From: Dehalococcoidia bacterium
GTDB lineage: Bacteria; Chloroflexota; Dehalococcoidia; Lucifugimonadales; JAGWBF01
Assembly: GCA_965207935.1 (NCBI GenBank)
Contig: CBDBNM010000002.1
Location: forward strand, 1,129,179-1,193,178
DNA: 64,000 nucleotides
Direction: 5' to 3'
The notes below the pieces were generated by a model. The model was not told where the DNA came from, did no database searches, and saw only the letters and a program-made list of their open reading frames with translations. This document shows, one piece after another, positions 2,909 to 14,585 of the stretch. Every line of letters begins with the position of its first letter. Within the stretch, counting starts at the first letter, position 1. A program made the position numbers and the translations under genes.

Positions 2909-3307
2909 CCGGTTCGCCCTTCTATTGCCCCCAGGACGAACCAATAAGGGAATCATTCTTCACGCGTGGTCGTGTCGCAGGCTGGGTTTCCTGGATTGCG
3001 GCCTCCGCCGCAATGACGGCAGGGGCATTTGTCACATGCAGACGTTTGCTGGCAGTTCGTCCCCTACCCCATCCCCCGGGGTAGACGCGTCTTTTGTCAT
3101 TGACGCGTATTCGTCTTTGCGGCGAAGGCCGCAATCCAGGACGGAGCGTTGCCGGCTACAGGATGGCTCCCGTCAAGGGGGATTGGCTCGGCTCGCCCTT
3201 TGATTGCTCCCAGGACGAACCAATAAGGGAATCATTCTTCACGCGTGGTCGTGTCGCAGGCTGGGTTTCCTGGATTGCGGCCTCCGCCGCAATGACGGCA
3301 GGGGCAC
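2909..3307. repeat. Mosaic palindromic repeat cluster R2
   Basis: An internal direct repeat of about 117 nt occurs at 2911-3027 and 3189-3306. Hairpins ATTGCGGC-N4-GCCGCAAT start at 2995 and 3274, with a variant at 3116. Segment 2971-3190 is colinear with 1661-1880. Confidence 0.85.
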
Positions 3308-3384
3308 TTATGCAGGAATTGTGGAAGGGTTCCGATGAAGGGGAAGCAGGCCGAGGGCCTGTGAGTGCAGGGGCAGAGTAGGGC

Positions 3385-4677
3385 CTACGCTTCCTTGGAT
3401 AGGTTGGTCAGGAACTCGGCGTTGTTCTTGGTGCGACCCAGGCGCTCCAGGATGCGCTCGGTGGCGTCGGCGGCGTTGGTCGAGTCCGTTGCAAGCAGGG
3501 CAATCATACGCCTCAGCAGATAGACCTGCCTGAGGGTGGTTTCATCGAAGAACAGCTCCTCACGCCTGGTCCCGCTGCGCTGTATGTCTATGGCTGGGAA
3601 GAAGCGCTTCTCCGCCAGCCGCCGGTCCAGGTGCAGCTCCATGTTCCCGGTGCCCTTGAACTCCTCGTAGATGACCTCATCCATGCGGCTGCCGGTGTCC
3701 ACGAGGCAGTTGGCGATGATGGTCAAGCTGCCGCCCTCTTCCACGTTCCGGGCTGCGCCGAAGAACTGCTTGGGCGGGTATAGGGCCATGGGGTCGATCC
3801 CACCGGAAAGAGTGCGTCCGCTGGTGGGGGCCGACAGGTTGTAGGCCCGGGTGAAGCGGGTGATGCTGTCCAGCAGGATCACCACGTCGCGCTTGCTCTC
3901 CACCAGTCGCTTGGCCCGCTCCAGGGCCAGCTCGCCGATGCGGCACTGGTCGTCCACCGACTCGTCGAAGGTGGAGGCAAACACTTCGCCCTTCACTGAG
4001 CGGCGCATGTCCGTCACCTCTTCGGGCCTCTCCCCGATGAGCACCACCATGATGTCGGCTTCGGGGCAGTTGTTGGAAACCCCGCGGGCGATGTTCTTCA
4101 GGACGGTGGTCTTTCCGGCCTTGGGCGGCGACACGATCAGGCCCCGCTGCCCCAGGCCGATGGGGGCGAACAGGTCCACCATCCGGTTGGTCAGGTTGTT
4201 AGGTTCCGATTCCAGCTCCAGTACGATCTGCCGGTCGGGGAACACGGGGGTCAGGTGCTCGAAGGAGCGTCGCGAGCGCAGGTCCTCGGGCTCCAGGCCG
4301 TTGACCTGCTCAACCCGGACCAGTCCAAAGTAGCGTTCTCCCTCCTTGGGGGGTCGTACCTGGCCGGCCAGGGTGTCGCCGGTGCGCAGGCCGAAACGCC
4401 TTATCTGGGACTGGGAGACGTACACATCTCCCGCGGCTGGACGGAGCCCTTGCTGCCGAAGGAAACCATAGCCTTCGTGCATCACATCCAGGACCCCGGT
4501 GGCCATCAGGCCCCGCTGCTCCGAGCACATCTGGAAGACGCGCCCGAGCACATCTTCCCTTCTAAGGTTGACGAGGGGAGCGCTGTCTTCCAGGCCCAGG
4601 TCTTTTGCAACTACAAGGAGCTCATCCTTGCTTTTGCGCTCCAGCTCGCCAATATCAACTGCTTGTTCCGTTGTCAC
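3385..4677 (-). CDS. rho: Transcription termination factor Rho
   Basis: 430 aa. RNA-binding N-terminal part ([14 protein letters not shown]), Walker A ([15 protein letters not shown]) and a full-length Rho-like layout. Confidence 0.97.
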
Positions 4678-4762
4678 AGGGTCACCTCTCAGTGGAGTTT
4701 TTTGGGGGTTCCAACGCCTTCGGCGGTAGGAGTCCGGGGCTCTTCAAGAACGTCCGAACCGA

Positions 4763-5419
4763 TCATTTCGAAGCTTTGTTCCAGTCCTGCAAGAATCGGG
4801 CCTGCCCGGCATCGGTCATGGGATGCTTCAGCATTTGCCCAAAGACCGTGAAAGGCATGGTGGCAATGTGTGCGCCGGCCTTGGCAGCCTGAATGCAGTG
4901 CAGGGGATGGCGGAGGCTGGCCGCCAGCACCTCGGTTTTGATGTTGTACTGGCGAAAGATGTCAACGATGTCCCTGACAAGCTGCATCCCGTCGTGGCCG
5001 ATGTCGTCCAGCCGTCCCACGAATGGGCTGACGGCAGTGGCGCCGCAGTGGGCGCCCAGCAAGGCTTGATTGACCGAGAAGCAGAGGGTCTGGTTCACCT
5101 TGATGTTGTCCCTGGTGAGGGTTGCCATAGCTTCCAGGCCCTCGGAGGTGCTGGGCAGCTTCACCCAGGGGTTGGGGATCCACTCGGCAATGTCCCGGCC
5201 TTCGCTGATCATCCCTTCAACGTCGGTGCTGACGACCTCGACGGAGATTGGCCCGTCGATGATGTCGGCGATCTCCTGGACGGCGGCTTTGTATGCGCCC
5301 GCAGCCCCTATGCCTTCCTTGGCGGCAAGAGAGGGGTTGGTGGTCACGCCATGCACCGCACCCAGGCGGGCGCCCTGGCGTATCTCATCTATGTTGGCGG
5401 TGTCCAGGAATATCTTCAT
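4763..5419 (-). CDS. tal: Transaldolase (short type 3B) / fructose-6-phosphate aldolase
   Basis: 218 aa. MKIFLDTANIDEI, VTTNPSL and VKLPST motifs typical of short transaldolase/FSA proteins. Confidence 0.92.
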   Translation of the reverse strand: MKIFLDTANIDEIRQGARLGAVHGVTTNPSLAAKEGIGAAGAYKAAVQEIADIIDGPISVEVVSTDVEGMISEGRDIAEWIPNPWVKLPSTSEGLEAMATLTRDNIKVNQTLCFSVNQALLGAHCGATAVSPFVGRLDDIGHDGMQLVRDIVDIFRQYNIKTEVLAASLRHPLHCIQAAKAGAHIATMPFTVFGQMLKHPMTDAGQARFLQDWNKASK

Positions 5420-9882: not shown

Positions 9883-12102
9883 TTAGCGGGGTGAAGGGGT
9901 TGGGGCGTCCGTGTTACTACGAGTTGCGCTGATCACCCCTCGCACACCCTCGAGCTTGTTGAACAGGCGGGCAAGCTGGTCCACCCCGGAGGTGTACAGG
10001 GTGAGGGAGATGGTAGCCGTGCCGTCGGAGTTCTCCGTCGTCACCACCGAAGCTATGTTCACCTTGTCGTCGGACACCAGGGTGGTGATGTCCTTCAGGA
10101 GGCCCACCCGGTCCCACGCTTGGATGTCCACCCTGACGGGATAGAGGGAACGGGCTTCTCCCCAGTCCACGCTCACCAGGCGCTCGGGCTCATCTTCGTT
10201 GCGCAGGTTGGGGCAGCCGGTCTTGTGCACCGTCACCCCTTGGGTGCGGGTGACGTACCCGATGATCTCCTCGCCGGGCAGAGGATTGCAGCACCTGCCC
10301 ATGCGGATGAGCAGGTCTCCCACACCCAGCACCTGGACGCCGGTGGTCGGGCTGGATATCGGCAGGTTGGACTGCGCCTTCTTGGTCGTCTTCTCCTGCT
10401 GGGTTGTGAGGCGGCCCACCAACTGCACCTCGGATATGTTCCCCGATCCCAGGGCAGCCAGAAAGTCCTCGGTGGAGTCGTAGCGGAAAGTCTTGGCGAC
10501 CTCATCCTCGTCCATGGTGACGTTCAGGCGCTTGAGCTCCTTGCGCAGCAGGTCGCCGCCCCGCTGAATATTTGCGCTCTTCTCCTGCCTCCGGAACCAC
10601 TGGCGCACCTTCTCCTTGGCGCTGGCAGACCGCAGGTATCCCAGGTTGGGATTGAGCCAGTCCAAGCTGGGCCCGCGGGCGACCTTGGTTGTCAGGATCT
10701 CGATGGTGTCCCCGTTCTGGAGCTGCCGGTCCAGGGACACCAGGCGCCCGTTGACCTTGCCTCCGATGCACCGGTGCCCCAGCTCGGTGTGTATCTTGTA
10801 GGCGAAGTCCAGGGGAGTGGACCCTGAAGGAAGCTCGACGATGTCGCCCTTGGGTGTATAGACGAACACCTGGTCCTTGAACAGGTCGGTCTTGACCGAT
10901 TCCAGGAACTCCTCGGTGCCGCTGACCTCCCGCTGCCAGTCCAGGAGCTGACGGAGCCAGGTCATCTTGTCTTCGAAGAGCACATCCCCGGAGCTGCCTT
11001 CCTTGTACCTCCAGTGGGCGGCCACGCCGTACTCGGCGACCTGGTGCATCTCGTAGGTGCGTATCTGCACCTCCAGGGGATTGCCTCCCTCGCACATAAC
11101 CGTCGTGTGCAGGGAGCGGTAGCGGTTGTCCTTGGGGCTCCCTATGTAGTCGTCGAACTGGCCCGGCATAGGGTGCCACAGGTCGTGCACCAGCCCCAGG
11201 GCGTTGTAGCAGTCGGCCTTGGACCTTACCAGTACCCGAACGGCGTACAGGTCGTGTATCTGGCTGAGCTCCATTCCCTGGGCTTGGTACTTCAGCATCT
11301 TCTTGTAGATGCTGTAGATGTGCTTGGGGCGGCCGACCACCTGGGCCTCCAGGTTGGCCAGCTCAAGCTGCTCCCGGAGCACATCCACCACGTTTTCGAT
11401 GTAGGACTCCCGCTCCTGCCTCCGGGCCGCCAGCATCTTGGAGATCTTGTGGTACAGGTCGTTTTCCAGGTGCCGGAAAGCCAAATCCTCCAGGCGCCAC
11501 TTGATGTTCCATATGCCCAGGCGGTGGGCGAGGGGGCCGTAAATGTCCAGGGTTTCCTGGGCTATTGCCCGGCGCCGCACCTCGGGCAGGGCGTCCAGGG
11601 TCTCCATGTTGTGGAGGCGGTCGGCCAGCTTGACCAGCACCACCCGGATATCCTCGGCCATAGCCACCAGCATCTTGCGCAGGCTCTCGGCCTGAATGCT
11701 GTCCTCGGTGGAGTTGGCAGAGCTTTCGTGGGCAAGGGTCTTGGCGTCCATACGGTTGAGCTTGCTGACCCCATCAACCAGCTTGGCCACATCATCGCCA
11801 AAGGCTTCCTTTATGTCGCCGTAGGTGACACCGCAGTCCTCCATGACATCGTGAAGAAGGGCGACAGCGATGGTGGTGACGTCGAGGCGCAGGTCTGCCA
11901 GGAAGAGGGCCGTTTCCAGGGGATGTTCTATGTAGGGGCCACCGGACATGCGGGTCTGTCCGGCGTGGCTCTCTGTGGCGAACTCGCAGGCTTTCTCCAC
12001 CACAGCCACCTTGTCGGCGGGCAGGTAGGTGCCAACCTTGGAGATCAGCTTTTCCGCGCTCTCTGCAACGGTCGTCATAAGACTTCCCTTGTAGCAAATC
12101 AT
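9883..12102 (-). CDS. relA: Bifunctional (p)ppGpp synthetase/hydrolase (RelA/SpoT family)
   Basis: 739 aa. HD hydrolase (HDVMEDC), RelA/SpoT synthetase (YRSLHTTV), then TGS and ACT regions in order. An alternative start at 12078 (MTTVAES) has AAGGGAAG upstream. Confidence 0.95.
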   Translation of the reverse strand: MICYKGSLMTTVAESAEKLISKVGTYLPADKVAVVEKACEFATESHAGQTRMSGGPYIEHPLETALFLADLRLDVTTIAVALLHDVMEDCGVTYGDIKEAFGDDVAKLVDGVSKLNRMDAKTLAHESSANSTEDSIQAESLRKMLVAMAEDIRVVLVKLADRLHNMETLDALPEVRRRAIAQETLDIYGPLAHRLGIWNIKWRLEDLAFRHLENDLYHKISKMLAARRQERESYIENVVDVLREQLELANLEAQVVGRPKHIYSIYKKMLKYQAQGMELSQIHDLYAVRVLVRSKADCYNALGLVHDLWHPMPGQFDDYIGSPKDNRYRSLHTTVMCEGGNPLEVQIRTYEMHQVAEYGVAAHWRYKEGSSGDVLFEDKMTWLRQLLDWQREVSGTEEFLESVKTDLFKDQVFVYTPKGDIVELPSGSTPLDFAYKIHTELGHRCIGGKVNGRLVSLDRQLQNGDTIEILTTKVARGPSLDWLNPNLGYLRSASAKEKVRQWFRRQEKSANIQRGGDLLRKELKRLNVTMDEDEVAKTFRYDSTEDFLAALGSGNISEVQLVGRLTTQQEKTTKKAQSNLPISSPTTGVQVLGVGDLLIRMGRCCNPLPGEEIIGYVTRTQGVTVHKTGCPNLRNEDEPERLVSVDWGEARSLYPVRVDIQAWDRVGLLKDITTLVSDDKVNIASVVTTENSDGTATISLTLYTSGVDQLARLFNKLEGVRGVISATRSNTDAPTPSPR

Positions 12103-12182
12103 AACCTTGGAGCACCGGGAAGTCTAGGAGGGCGGGACGTCCTTAAGTTGCGAGTCTGGAGGGTTGTTCAGCTCGCCGCGTA

Positions 12183-12211
12183 TTGACAGCCCAAAGCAGA
12201 CGGTTTATGAA
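12183..12211 (+). promoter_or_regulatory. Candidate promoter of the acidic-protein/PLD cassette
   Basis: TTGACA (12183-12188), a 17-nt spacer and TATGAA (12206-12211). GAGGAG (12225-12230) lies 9 nt before the ATG at 12240. Confidence 0.35.
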
Positions 12212-12239
12212 GGTCTAAATCGCCGAGGAGCTTGCTCAT

Positions 12240-12422
12240 ATGACCCTCTACCAGGTGGGCATAGAACGAACATTGGTGTGCTGGATCTTGGTCGATGCGG
12301 AGGATGAAACGGACGCCCAAAACCAGGCTGAAAATACTGATCCGTATGCCCTCGACTGGAAGGAGGCCCAATACGAGGTCTTTGAGGTCGAGGATATACT
12401 GGGTGAAATAAGACCTGTGTGA
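12240..12422 (+). CDS. Small hyper-acidic protein (60 aa), function unknown
   Basis: It has its own RBS. There are 15 Asp/Glu against 3 Lys/Arg. Its TGA (12420-12422) overlaps the GTG start (12419) of the next gene. No family was recognised. Confidence 0.55.
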   Translation: MTLYQVGIERTLVCWILVDAEDETDAQNQAENTDPYALDWKEAQYEVFEVEDILGEIRPV

Positions 12423-13237
12423 GCATCGTGGAAGTCGTTACAACTCCAACATTTGACTGGCTAGCTGACCGAATCTCTTCCTGCACGTCTCGAGTGCTCA
12501 TCGGGAGCCCATTCGTCAACGACGGCATTTTGTCGCTGACCAGTCTGGTATCCAGGAATGTCCCCCGGATTCTGATTACGCGAACCGACCTGCGAGACTT
12601 TGCTATGGGAGCCTCCAATCCTGGAACCCTTTGTAAGCTGGCGACGGATGGGGTAGACGTCCGCAGCTTGATCGACCTACACGCAAAGATATACGTGTTC
12701 GACGACAAATGGGCCTTGGTGACTTCTGCAAATGCGACGAACTCAGGGATGCGTCGCAACATTGAGTGCGGCTTGGCAACACAGGACAGGCGGGTGGTGA
12801 ACCGTCTAGCCAGGTCTTTGCTCAGGGGACTAGGGGCCGAAAGTCCTCCCAGAAGGATGAAACTGGAGAAACTAGAGGCCTTGCAAGCCCAAACTAAGAT
12901 GGTCAAGGCAACTGTTCTCTTGCCTAAGGTTACTGCGCCGCTGGGCGACTCCGTTGAGGCTGAGGCCACCTTTTCTATCGCCGACCCCAGAGCCTTCCTT
13001 CAATCCGACAGCGGTTGGCTGAGGCTTACCCTTCAAGGTGTGCTAGCGATGCCGGAGGAAAACTTTCAGTTGCAACAATTGATCTCCGAGTGTCAAGCCG
13101 AGGCATCGAGGCGGTACCCCAAGAATCAAAACGTAGAAGCGAAGCTCCGTCAGCAGTTGCAGGTGCTTCGGGATAAAGGCATAGTTGAATTTCTCGCGCC
13201 GGATCAGCCAGGTCACTATAGGCGCACGATGAGTTGA
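12419..13237 (+). CDS. Single-HKD phospholipase D-family (Nuc-like) nuclease with C-terminal winged-helix-like tail
   Basis: 272 aa. Complete HKD motif HAKIYVFDDKWALVTSAN (12680-12733). The C-terminus LRQQLQVLRDKGIVEFLAPDQPGHYRR looks wHTH-like. A/T-ending codons are more frequent than in the flanking genes. Confidence 0.8.
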   Translation: MSIVEVVTTPTFDWLADRISSCTSRVLIGSPFVNDGILSLTSLVSRNVPRILITRTDLRDFAMGASNPGTLCKLATDGVDVRSLIDLHAKIYVFDDKWALVTSANATNSGMRRNIECGLATQDRRVVNRLARSLLRGLGAESPPRRMKLEKLEALQAQTKMVKATVLLPKVTAPLGDSVEAEATFSIADPRAFLQSDSGWLRLTLQGVLAMPEENFQLQQLISECQAEASRRYPKNQNVEAKLRQQLQVLRDKGIVEFLAPDQPGHYRRTMS

Positions 13238-13319
13238 TGAGGACGCGCCTCTCTCGTATGGCCTGACCCTACTCTTCCTTTACACTCCGTTGGAAGCTGG
13301 GGTATTCTCCACCCTGAAA

Positions 13320-14585
13320 ATGGCTATGCAGCACCGGGCGCCCAGGGGAACGGCAGATATCCTGCCCTCGGACCAGAAGTACTGGCGGTACATCGAAGGT
13401 AAGGCCCGCGACCTGTCCCGCAGGTTCGGGTACTCCCGGCTGGACACCCCCGTCTTCGAGGACTCCGGCCTGTTTGTGCGCTCCGTGGGGGAAGGCACCG
13501 ACATCGTCGAAAAGGAGATGTACACCTTCCTCGACCGGGGCGGCGACTCCAACACCCTGCGCCCCGAAGGCACCGCGCCTGTGTGCAGGGCCTACCTGGA
13601 GCACGGAATGCAGAACCAGCCCCAGCCCGTGCGCATGTACTACTTCTGCCCGGTGTTCCGCTACGAACGTCCCCAGGCGGGGCGCTACCGGGAACACCAC
13701 CAGTTCGGGGTGGAGGCCCTGGGAGACGGCGACCCTTCCGTGGATGCTGAGATTGTGGAGCTGGCTTGGTCCCTGGTCGGCGCCTTGGGCTTGGAGGACA
13801 CATCCCTCCTGGTCAACAGCATCGGCGACAAAGAGTGCCGGCCCGCCTACATCGACAAGCTGAAGGAGCACTACACCCGGGCCAAGGACCAGCTCTGCCG
13901 GGACTGCGTTGACCGCCTGGACCGAAACCCCCTGAGGCTACTGGACTGCAAGCAGGCATCCTGCCAGGGACTGGGCATGGAGGCTCCCCGCTCGGTAGAC
14001 CACCTGTGCCCGGATTGCCAAACCCACTGGGAAAGCTTCCAGCGCTACCTGGACAGCATGGGATTGCCGTATAGAATCGACCACCACCTTGTGAGAGGGT
14101 TGGACTACTACACCCGCACAGTTTTCGAGATCCAGCCCAAGGAAGAGGGTGGGCAGAGCACCATACTGGGCGGCGGCCGGTACGATGGCCTAATCGAGCA
14201 GATAGGCGGGAAGCCGACTCCCGGCATAGGGTTCGCCACGGGCATGGAGCGCCTGGTGCTCAACCTGAAGCGGCAGGAGGTGCCCGTCCCCGACGAGCCG
14301 TCCCCCGACTACATGGTCATCAGCGCAGGTGAAGGCACCCGGGACGCCGCCCTGGAGCTGGCTGCCAGGATTCGCCGGGCCGGGAGCGGGGCCATCCTCA
14401 GCACAGCCGGCCGGGCCTTACGGGGCCAGCTCCGCCAAGCCAACGCTCTGGGAGTGCGCTACGCTGTCATCCTGGGGGAAGACGAAATCAGCAAGGGCGA
14501 GGTGACGCTGCGTGACATGACCAGCAGCGAGCAGGAGGCGGTCCCGGTGGACACCTTCCTGGCCAAGCTGGACTGCGGTCGGTAG
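13320..14585 (+). CDS. hisS: Histidine--tRNA ligase
   Basis: Track ORF from 13290. The ATG at 13320 gives MAMQHRAPRGTADILP. Class II motifs are present (LRPEGTAP, FRYERPQAGRYREHHQ, GGGRYDGL). Confidence 0.97.
   Translation: MAMQHRAPRGTADILPSDQKYWRYIEGKARDLSRRFGYSRLDTPVFEDSGLFVRSVGEGTDIVEKEMYTFLDRGGDSNTLRPEGTAPVCRAYLEHGMQNQPQPVRMYYFCPVFRYERPQAGRYREHHQFGVEALGDGDPSVDAEIVELAWSLVGALGLEDTSLLVNSIGDKECRPAYIDKLKEHYTRAKDQLCRDCVDRLDRNPLRLLDCKQASCQGLGMEAPRSVDHLCPDCQTHWESFQRYLDSMGLPYRIDHHLVRGLDYYTRTVFEIQPKEEGGQSTILGGGRYDGLIEQIGGKPTPGIGFATGMERLVLNLKRQEVPVPDEPSPDYMVISAGEGTRDAALELAARIRRAGSGAILSTAGRALRGQLRQANALGVRYAVILGEDEISKGEVTLRDMTSSEQEAVPVDTFLAKLDCGR

Follow-up and report, generated by a model that had tools for sequence, protein, structure and literature searches.

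Winged-helix fusion endonucleases that sense Gm6ATC include 27 predicted proteins, designated PLD-wH, in which a phospholipase D (PLD) nuclease domain is joined to a winged helix (Helbrecht et al. 2024, Front Microbiol 15:1286822; PMC11037411). They have been described as putative type IV, Dam-methylation-dependent restriction enzymes, and two of them, Aba4572I and CbaI, come from Chloroflexota-type bacteria. PLD-wH clones were toxic in Escherichia coli, over-expression failed and the protein was undetectable, and two further members were reported as not expressible "due to toxicity". In uninduced cells the toxicity of Aba4572I and CbaI was lower in Dam- than in Dam+ E. coli; Aba4572I was toxic even in the Dam- strain and the toxicity of CbaI was Dam-dependent. 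The enzymes were treated as single-chain proteins, and the 'hypothetical proteins' encoded beside them were mentioned without analysis (PMC11037411). PLD-wH is the one branch of the winged-helix methyladenine-dependent restriction enzymes that has resisted expression and purification. In this paper, we report the analysis of a 64,000-nucleotide stretch of a Dehalococcoidia bacterium genome (GCA_965207935.1, contig CBDBNM010000002.1, positions 1,129,179 to 1,193,178; hereafter the window, meaning the whole stretch), in which a PLD-wH gene overlaps an upstream gene for a 60-residue acidic protein.

A second system relevant to this locus is the DpnI cassette of Streptococcus pneumoniae, which was reportedly sequenced in 1986. 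The pneumococcal locus consists of dpnC, which encodes DpnI, and dpnD, which encodes "a protein of unknown function" (PMC4471560). The residues of DpnI that form the methyl pocket and read the bases are E228, K229, R231, Q232 and Q235 (PMC3424567).

The putative PLD-wH nuclease and its probable acidic partner

Two open reading frames (ORFs) on the plus strand, with ATG and GTG start codons respectively, occupy the interval between the core genes relA/spoT and hisS. Their features are as follows.

12240-12422, plus strand: gene 1, a 60-residue acidic protein with a predicted beta-alpha-beta fold (from the ORF, the substitution ratio and conserved adjacency)
12417-12422, plus strand: GTGTGA, the 4-nt overlap of the gene 2 GTG start (12419-12421) with the gene 1 TGA stop (12420-12422)
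12419-13237, plus strand: gene 2, a 272-residue PLD-wH fusion, putative N6-methyladenine-dependent (type IV) restriction nuclease
12464-12814, plus strand: PLD-superfamily nuclease domain, residues 16-132 (PF13091, PLDc_2, E 6.4e-14)
12680-12733, plus strand: single HKD motif HAKIYVFDDKWALVTSAN, residues 88-105 (H88, K90, D95, S103 and N105; PF00614, E 2.3e-5)
13010-13222, plus strand: DpnI-type winged helix, residues 198-268 (PF17726, DpnI_C, E 1.3e-16)
13142-13162, plus strand: recognition helix KLRQQLQ (K242-Q248), the counterpart of K229-Q235 of DpnI

An original prediction, made from the sequence alone, had placed both ORFs and the overlap at these coordinates, and a direct reading agrees with it; the 3' end of gene 1 reads CCT GTG TGA. 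Gene 2 is a member of the PLD-wH class, as judged from its sequence, and gene 1 is a conserved co-translated acidic partner of PLD-wH that is new, in that nobody has described it. What is known is thus the nuclease class; what is new is the partnership of gene 1 with PLD-wH, together with a possible kinship of gene 1 with DpnD.

Relatives of the locus, labelled L001, L004 and so on, were compared with the window. The one close relative is L004, a Dehalococcoidia genome with a PLD protein at 82% identity, which keeps the order relA, 60-residue gene, PLD gene and hisS. Between the window and L004, gene 1 has accumulated 14 synonymous and 10 non-synonymous changes, and its ratio of non-synonymous to synonymous substitution rates (dN/dS) is 0.145, compared with 0.125 for the PLD gene. 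Gene 1 is a real gene under purifying selection.

Species-representative genomes contain 197 PLD-wH loci, and all locus-level counts of neighbours given below refer to the best 80 of these. By tblastn and an iterated hidden Markov model, a gene 1 family member was detected at 15 of the 80 loci, where it immediately precedes the PLD-wH gene in every case, and an independent look-up of two more family members (L085 and L086) again found a PLD-wH gene next in line. This is the co-occurrence that the original prediction had put forward as a check on the pairing. In the window and 17 distinct loci, each gene 1 member ends -8 to +14 nt from the PLD-wH start, that is, from 8 nt inside that gene to 14 nt before it. 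Close family members (E <1e-10) occur only beside PLD-wH genes in the contexts examined, next to nucleases that have diverged to ~53% identity. The family as a whole comprises 42 clusters at E <=0.01 and is without Pfam annotation.

Recounting gave 15 Asp/Glu and only 3 Lys/Arg in gene 1, as originally predicted, with a net charge of -12 and an isoelectric point (pI) of 4.05. The AlphaFold2 model (predicted local distance difference test score, pLDDT, 88) has a strand at residues 4-13, a helix at 23-32 and a second strand at 41-52. No matches were obtained in PADLOC or NCBIfam, PHROGs returned a single weak match (phrog_18001, E 0.016), and Foldseek of the model against the PDB gave nothing with E <2; no DNA-binding domain was detected in the Pfam, NCBIfam and PHROGs scans. 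The same fold was found in BFVD in many uncharacterised phage proteins of 52-64 residues, one of which is named PcfM DpnD/PcfM-like.

Gene 2 (pI 9.3) has a single complete HKD motif in a PLD nuclease domain, as had been claimed, and H88, K90, D95, S103 and N105 of the motif are invariant across 76 homologues. Its AlphaFold2 model (pLDDT 89.5, predicted template modelling score 0.86) was matched by Foldseek to the nucleases NucT (6ehi), Nuc (1byr) and Zucchini (4ggj) and to DpnI (4kyw, 4esj), and of these folds NucT and Nuc, both single-HKD nucleases, fitted best by target coverage (target TM-score 0.67-0.70). The C-terminal region, which the original prediction had taken for a winged-helix DNA-binding tail, is indeed a winged helix, although its N6-methyladenine-reading DpnI type had been missed: it scores 60.9 bits (cut-off 23) against PF17726 ("Dam-replacing HTH domain"). 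A phmmer search of the PDB returned DpnI only, with residues 187-250 of 4esj, the C-terminal winged helix, matching gene 2. In PADLOC, mREase_II (type II methyl-directed restriction enzyme) matched the C-terminus (E 2.9e-10) and DrmC models matched over the PLD part.

The DpnI residues E228, K229, R231, Q232 and Q235 align to A241, K242, R244, Q245 and Q248 of gene 2, four of the five being identical. K242, R244 and Q248 are conserved in at least 90% of the family and Q245 in less than 90%, L243, Q246 and L247 are invariant, and position 241 (DpnI E228) varies. The KLRQQLQ helix is among the best-conserved parts of the PLD-wH family. This conservation suggests that the winged helix of gene 2 may read Gm6ATC.

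PLD-wH homologues form at least 260 clusters at 90% identity, and both domains are present in 118 of the 120 homologues listed. The family is much larger than the published count of 27. The best 80 loci come mostly from metagenome-assembled genomes of Dehalococcoidia and other Chloroflexota, with minor contributions from Poribacteria, Verrucomicrobiota, Brocadiia, Armatimonadia, Ignavibacteriales, Alcaligenaceae, Planctomycetales and one Clostridia genome. The earlier statement that the pair could not be matched to a named system falls because the nuclease belongs to a class described in 2024, namely the PLD-wH class of Helbrecht et al. (PMC11037411).

Insertion site and relatives of the cassette

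The borders of the cassette and its candidate expression signals are listed here.

9883-12102, minus strand: relA/spoT-type (p)ppGpp synthetase/hydrolase, core gene, left border (from the ORF and the domains of the L001 orthologue)
12183-12211, plus strand: promoter-like pair TTGACA (12183-12188) and TATGAA (12206-12211) with a 17-nt spacer (direct reading of the sequence)
12225-12230, plus strand: Shine-Dalgarno sequence GAGGAG, 9 nt 5' of the gene 1 ATG; L004 retains AGGAGCTTGCTCA
13320-14585, plus strand: hisS (histidyl-tRNA synthetase), core gene, right border (from the ORF and a syntenic relative)

The assignment of relA and hisS as flanking genes agrees with the Pfam content of the syntenic relative L001, whose relA/spoT orthologue has HD, RelA_SpoT, TGS and ACT domains. 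No methyltransferase or helicase was found among the genes adjoining the cassette, as had been noted, the neighbours being relA and hisS. The G+C content over 12050-13400 is 0.51-0.56, compared with 0.60-0.67 in the flanks, and G+C at third codon positions is 0.61 in gene 1 and 0.62 in gene 2, compared with 0.85 in both relA and hisS; the lower G+C and the greater use of A/T-ending codons in the original account are thus borne out.

The relA-to-hisS start distance is 1217 bp in the window. The same junction was inspected in three metagenomic contigs (L094, L096 and L098) with HisS 57-60% identical to that of the window. In L094 and L098, the divergent relA and hisS genes are 127 and 133 bp apart and the junction is empty, and in L096 (metagenome contig Ga0209427_10010634) an unrelated 578-residue gene is found there (2949-4874). 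The product of the latter has a hydrophobic N-terminal segment and a proline-rich stretch. This junction seems to be a place where genes have landed on more than one occasion. Other PLD-wH homologues are found in many unrelated genomic contexts. The break in codon usage, the junctions that are empty or hold another gene, and the varied contexts of the homologues together support horizontal acquisition of the two-gene cassette at the divergent relA/hisS junction.

The promoter-like pair reported upstream of gene 1 is present, and both hexamers and their spacing are kept in L004 while the neighbouring bases have diverged. The site was passed over by a consensus promoter scanner, since the -10 hexamer ends in A (position 6) and lacks the usual final T; the promoter is therefore plausible but not strong. 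The ribosome-binding site GAGGAG is also as claimed and is kept in L004. hisS has its own conserved promoter-like site at 13279-13308. Directly 5' of the relA start, at 12096-12130, the window and L004 share a 35-nt block that differs only in its first base. A promoter-like site on the minus strand, TAGACT-17-TATGAT, overlaps this block, which probably represents the promoter and leader of relA, left in place beside the insert. Long antisense ORFs at 12205-12969 (minus strand) and 11014-12186 (plus strand) were dismissed as high-GC artefacts, the opposite strand having strongly conserved genes. The whole window contains no tRNA gene and no Rfam family at the gathering threshold.

The gene 1 profile was also searched against 1.8 billion representative sequences, and 62 proteins were found. 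The distant relatives among them are 55-70 residues long, carry the pattern MPKYxV...VEAxxxEEAxxKA and have E values of 1e-7 to 1e-3. A set of 52 proteins, consisting of the window protein and 51 distant relatives, was scanned with PF14207 ("DpnD/PcfM-like protein"), which matched 26 of the 52, the window protein included, with a best E value of 1.8e-8 and a constant register in which approximately residue 4 is aligned to profile position 1. Within the close family, PF14207 matches at E <1 in only 2 of 15 members. Alignment of the gene 1 family with the distant relatives by hhalign gave a probability of 99.5%, the relatives having been retrieved with the same profile. When the alignment of distant relatives was used in a word-indexed search, the 19 proteins retrieved were all unnamed and DpnD was not among them, and a literature search found no paper on PF14207 or DpnD-PcfM, the term 'PcfM' giving only unrelated acronyms. 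On this comparison, made with the Pfam profile and the distant relatives, gene 1 is probably a distant DpnD/PcfM-like protein, although this is not established.

The genes for the distant relatives form part of phage-like arrays in which very small genes run in one direction, and one cluster includes a Gordonia phage protein. Around the relatives in L084 (1-2433) and L090 (1-6471), there are dense one-strand runs of overlapping genes for 40-130 residues, one of them including a WhiB-like gene, a layout typical of phage early or accessory regions. Five proteins, P0167 (266 residues), P0190 (252 residues), P0181, P0195 and P0205, have 2-5 copies, in tandem, of the segment that the gene 1 profile recognises, which suggests that the beta-alpha-beta unit may work as a repeat or oligomer.

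A tblastn search of the DpnI winged helix against plasmids returned only the Neisseria drp gene and a Lactiplantibacillus gene, neither with a DpnD-like ORF nearby. The latter (L171, 2791-4164; Lactiplantibacillus plantarum plasmid NZ_CP028223.1) encodes a 457-residue protein, annotated as a sigma-70 family sigma factor, in which a winged helix is 42% identical to that of DpnI. A DEAD/DEAH helicase gene comes next. The Lactiplantibacillus gene may be a mis-annotated methyl-DNA-sensing defence gene.

Other PLD-wH clades have small neighbours of their own. ORFs abutting PLD-wH genes were clustered into partner families, of which U1 is the gene 1 family and the others are D3, D1 and U6. D3 proteins (~80 residues, acidic C-terminal tail, no Pfam match) are encoded directly downstream of PLD-wH in 8 loci, which come from Dehalococcoidia, a Chloroflexota genome, Armatimonadia and Brocadiia; D3 apparently substitutes for the small gene upstream. 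D1 proteins (~75 residues) have a CxxC...CxxC zinc ribbon-like arrangement and lie downstream of PLD-wH in 9 loci of other clades, and U6 proteins (~62 residues) lie upstream of PLD-wH in Verrucomicrobiota. The listed D3 and D1 genes are as follows.

D3 gene, L005: 6826-7077
D3 gene, L006: 6815-7081
D3 gene, L008: 6825-7073
D3 gene, L024: 6822-7055
D3 gene, L064: 6817-7089
D3 gene, L065: 3265-3513
D3 gene, L072: 5304-5543
D1 gene, L017: 6919-7164
D1 gene, L020: 6841-7065
D1 gene, L034: 6930-7160
D1 gene, L052: 4528-4782
D1 gene, L055: 6848-7072
D1 gene, L057: 6926-7168
D1 gene, L073: 6848-7072
D1 gene, L081: 6940-7170

D3, D1 and U6 are all acidic, with net charges of -2 to -19. Comparisons among U1, D3, D1 and U6 by hhalign gave probabilities of <=2.3%, and a single divergent partner family was accordingly rejected. 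In a neighbour-joining tree of the nucleases, the partner type tracks the clades patchily and the window clade, with the gene 1 type, is sister to the D3 clade, a pattern which looks like partner replacement. A DUF309 gene downstream in eight loci was set aside as a syntenic neighbour outside the module; it is absent in the window and L004. Short ORFs in L008 (5422-5940), L017 (5760-5993) and L048 (5713-5970) correspond to the N-terminal part of an N6/N4 DNA methyltransferase, with its DPPY motif, and abut PLD-wH (PF01555, E 3e-15 for the one in L008). They look truncated and are possibly inactivated.

Proposed mechanism and rival explanations

We propose that the acquired cassette consists of a PLD-wH type IV nuclease and a co-translated acidic stoichiometric partner, preferably a safety catch, and give this proposal an even chance of being correct. 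The winged helix of gene 2 would bind double-stranded DNA in which both strands carry N6-methyladenine, the likeliest context being GATC-like; the conserved residues and the characterised winged-helix fusion enzymes point to this step, and by analogy with those relatives the fully methylated A-T steps would be read without base flipping. Two single-HKD domains would dimerise to form one metal-independent active site with a phospho-histidine intermediate, as in Nuc and BfiI, and cleavage would fall near the methylated site and not within it, as in characterised relatives. The host would be spared because it lacks the methylation mark, and the targets of cleavage would be incoming phage or plasmid DNA with Dam-type methylation. 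Through coupled translation on a shared mRNA, gene 1 would be supplied as the stoichiometric partner of the nuclease; judging from its context, the acidic protein may mask the basic DNA-binding surface of gene 2. Its preferred role is that of a safety catch against methylation-independent cutting, as performed by Im proteins and barstar. Such an inhibitory role is favoured because PLD-wH genes are toxic when cloned alone and because unrelated acidic neighbours recur. If gene 1 is DpnD-like, the cassette would be an analogue of pneumococcal dpnC-dpnD in which PLD replaces PD-(D/E)XK.

The earlier idea of a nuclease paired with an acidic inhibitor is thus plausible. That of a compact defence or toxin-immunity module stands insofar as the cassette is of a horizontally acquired defence type, but its class is that of type IV restriction and not of a generic toxin.

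Several observations weigh against the proposed cassette. The published PLD-wH data consist of in vivo toxicity without in vitro cleavage, and other winged-helix fusion nucleases function as single chains (PMC11037411). Gene 2 has Ala in place of DpnI E228, which leaves its precise specificity for sequence and methylation uncertain. In 40-47 of the 80 loci, according to the distance cut-off, no conserved small neighbour could be recognised, and therefore a partner is not a universal requirement of the PLD-wH class. The kinship with DpnD is only probable because the window protein and its re-scanned relatives score below the PF14207 gathering cut-off: the window protein reaches 14.6 bits (E 0.035) with a cut-off of 25, and when 20 relatives were re-scanned singly, all 9 PF14207 matches were at 17-22 bits. 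These alignments cover only approximately the first 30 of the 46 profile positions. The dpnD gene of S. pneumoniae follows the nuclease gene, as judged by the gene names, whereas the small gene of the window lies upstream and overlaps, and no DpnD-like ORF adjoins the Neisseria drp gene. Lastly, the view of methylation on the host side covers 64 kb of a ~1.66-Mb genome.

GATC is rarer than expected in the window, with 193 sites compared with 293 +/- 15 in dinucleotide-preserving shuffles, a count that has no bearing on methylation. By a maximal-order Markov estimate its observed/expected ratio is 0.62; of the 16 four-base palindromes only CTAG (0.43) ranks lower, and CGCG ties with GATC. There are 5 GATC sites within the 1 kb of the cassette.

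A broader proposal, which we put forward tentatively and consider doubtful, is that PLD-wH enzymes are two-component systems in which small acidic proteins of several unrelated families, a DpnD/PcfM-like one in the window, bind and gate the nuclease, possibly at the winged helix, the only module in common with DpnI. If true, it would explain the toxicity and failed expression of PLD-wH genes cloned alone; it would also give a first function for DpnD, and phage DpnD/PcfM-like proteins could then inhibit methyl-dependent restriction.

The main rival to the safety catch is that gene 1 is a required positive subunit, either an assembly or folding factor or a beta-sheet element that completes the active dimer. 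We regard this as unlikely. It would account for the finding that PLD-wH alone gave no detectable protein in E. coli (PMC11037411), and coupled translation gives 1:1 synthesis. With one helix and only two long strands, the predicted fold of gene 1 would probably not be stable by itself and would suit strand complementation. However, about half of the PLD-wH loci have no recognisable partner, and the partner families are mutually unrelated, which generic charge-based masking explains more easily.

If the partner is either an inhibitor or a required subunit, PLD-wH enzymes could serve as tools for the detection of methylated DNA, there would be an explanation for the small acidic neighbours scattered over other clades, and a testable function would be available for the DpnD/PcfM-like proteins that are widespread in phages and conjugative plasmids.

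It is distinctly unlikely, in our estimation, that gene 1 is independent of the nuclease, being a phage-derived small gene or a leader ORF beside a single-chain type IV enzyme. The phage-like tiny-gene arrays around its distant relatives and the Gordonia phage protein in one cluster would be in keeping with such an origin, as would the activity of single-chain winged-helix fusions (PMC11037411) and the half of PLD-wH loci that manage without a partner. Yet the close gene 1 family was found only beside PLD-wH genes, next to nucleases diverged to ~53% identity, its juxtaposition of start and stop codons is constant, and it is under purifying selection. Should the partner do nothing, the finding would shrink to one more member of the family described in 2024.

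A toxin-antitoxin or abortive-infection module, in which the PLD protein is a non-specific DNase toxin, gene 1 a labile antitoxin and methylation irrelevant, has in our judgement little chance of being correct. The antitoxin-first order, the overlapping genes and the match of an acidic partner to a basic nuclease resemble such modules, and the toxicity of Aba4572I in Dam- cells suggests non-specific activity. CbaI toxicity is Dam-dependent, however, and the retention of 4 of the 5 DpnI methyl-pocket residues, with K242, R244 and Q248 conserved at >=90% across the family, speaks for a role of methylation. Furthermore, the profile scans detected in gene 1 no DNA-binding domain for autoregulation, many PLD-wH family members stand alone, and PADLOC contains no matching toxin-antitoxin or abortive-infection model.

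That gene 2 is not a nuclease at all, but a lipid-metabolising PLD of the cardiolipin or phosphatidylserine synthase type (housekeeping enzymes named as the alternative in the original prediction) or a TrmB-like factor with a degenerate PLD fold, is scarcely credible: Foldseek also returns TrmBL2/TrmB and phosphatidylserine synthase at similar E values and there is a weak ClsB match, but this match reaches 21 bits with a cut-off of 281, there is one HKD motif and no second repeat, NucT and Nuc fit best by target coverage, the invariance of the catalytic H, K, D, S and N sets gene 2 apart from TrmB, and so does its domain order, which is reversed.

Comparison with known systems

The pairing of gene 1 with gene 2 can be set beside small acidic nuclease inhibitors, namely the colicin Im proteins, barstar and NuiA, and beside the DNA-mimic anti-restriction proteins Ocr and ArdA. 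Gene 1 has in common with them that it is small, strongly negative and tied to a DNA-cutting enzyme; no similarity of sequence or fold was detected, with no PDB match at E <2 in Foldseek, and the analogy is functional only.

Nuc, NucT and the catalytic domain of BfiI have the fold and the single HKD motif of gene 2, for which a dimer with one shared metal-independent site would likewise be expected. Unlike gene 2, Nuc and NucT have no DNA-reading domain, and BfiI and NgoFVII carry a B3-like domain for unmethylated sites in contrast to the methyl-reading winged helix of gene 2. Membership of the BfiI/NgoFVII type was rejected on the C-terminal winged helix and on the RE_NgoFVII score (15.6 bits, cut-off 23.8). 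DrmC of the DISARM system, to which the original prediction had likened gene 2, shares with it the broad PLD subfamily (E 5.5e-18 over the PLD domain with the DrmC model of PADLOC) but lacks a winged helix. As a class assignment the comparison does not hold: the NF038319 match has 52.8 bits with a cut-off of 133 and is limited to the HKD region, and no drmA, drmB, methyltransferase or other DISARM partner gene is nearby.

With R.DpnI, gene 2 shares a homologous C-terminal winged helix (PF17726), in which the helix reads KIRQQLQ in DpnI and KLRQQLQ in gene 2. The catalytic domain of DpnI is PD-(D/E)XK, whereas that of gene 2 is PLD, and gene 2 was rejected as DpnI proper since PF06044, the DpnI catalytic family, gave no match at E up to 1 and only the winged helix aligns. 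The DpnI cassette (dpnC and dpnD, type IIM) has further points in common with the cassette of the window: two genes, no methyltransferase and a small second gene that is possibly of the same DpnD/PcfM-like superfamily.

The closest described system, likened by its architecture, is PLD-wH as represented by Aba4572I and CbaI, which have an N-terminal PLD domain and a C-terminal DpnI-type winged helix in the same order, a Chloroflexota host and the same predicted role in N6-methyladenine-dependent type IV restriction. PLD-wH as published is a single-chain enzyme, whereas the subclade to which the window belongs has a conserved co-translated 60-residue acidic partner.

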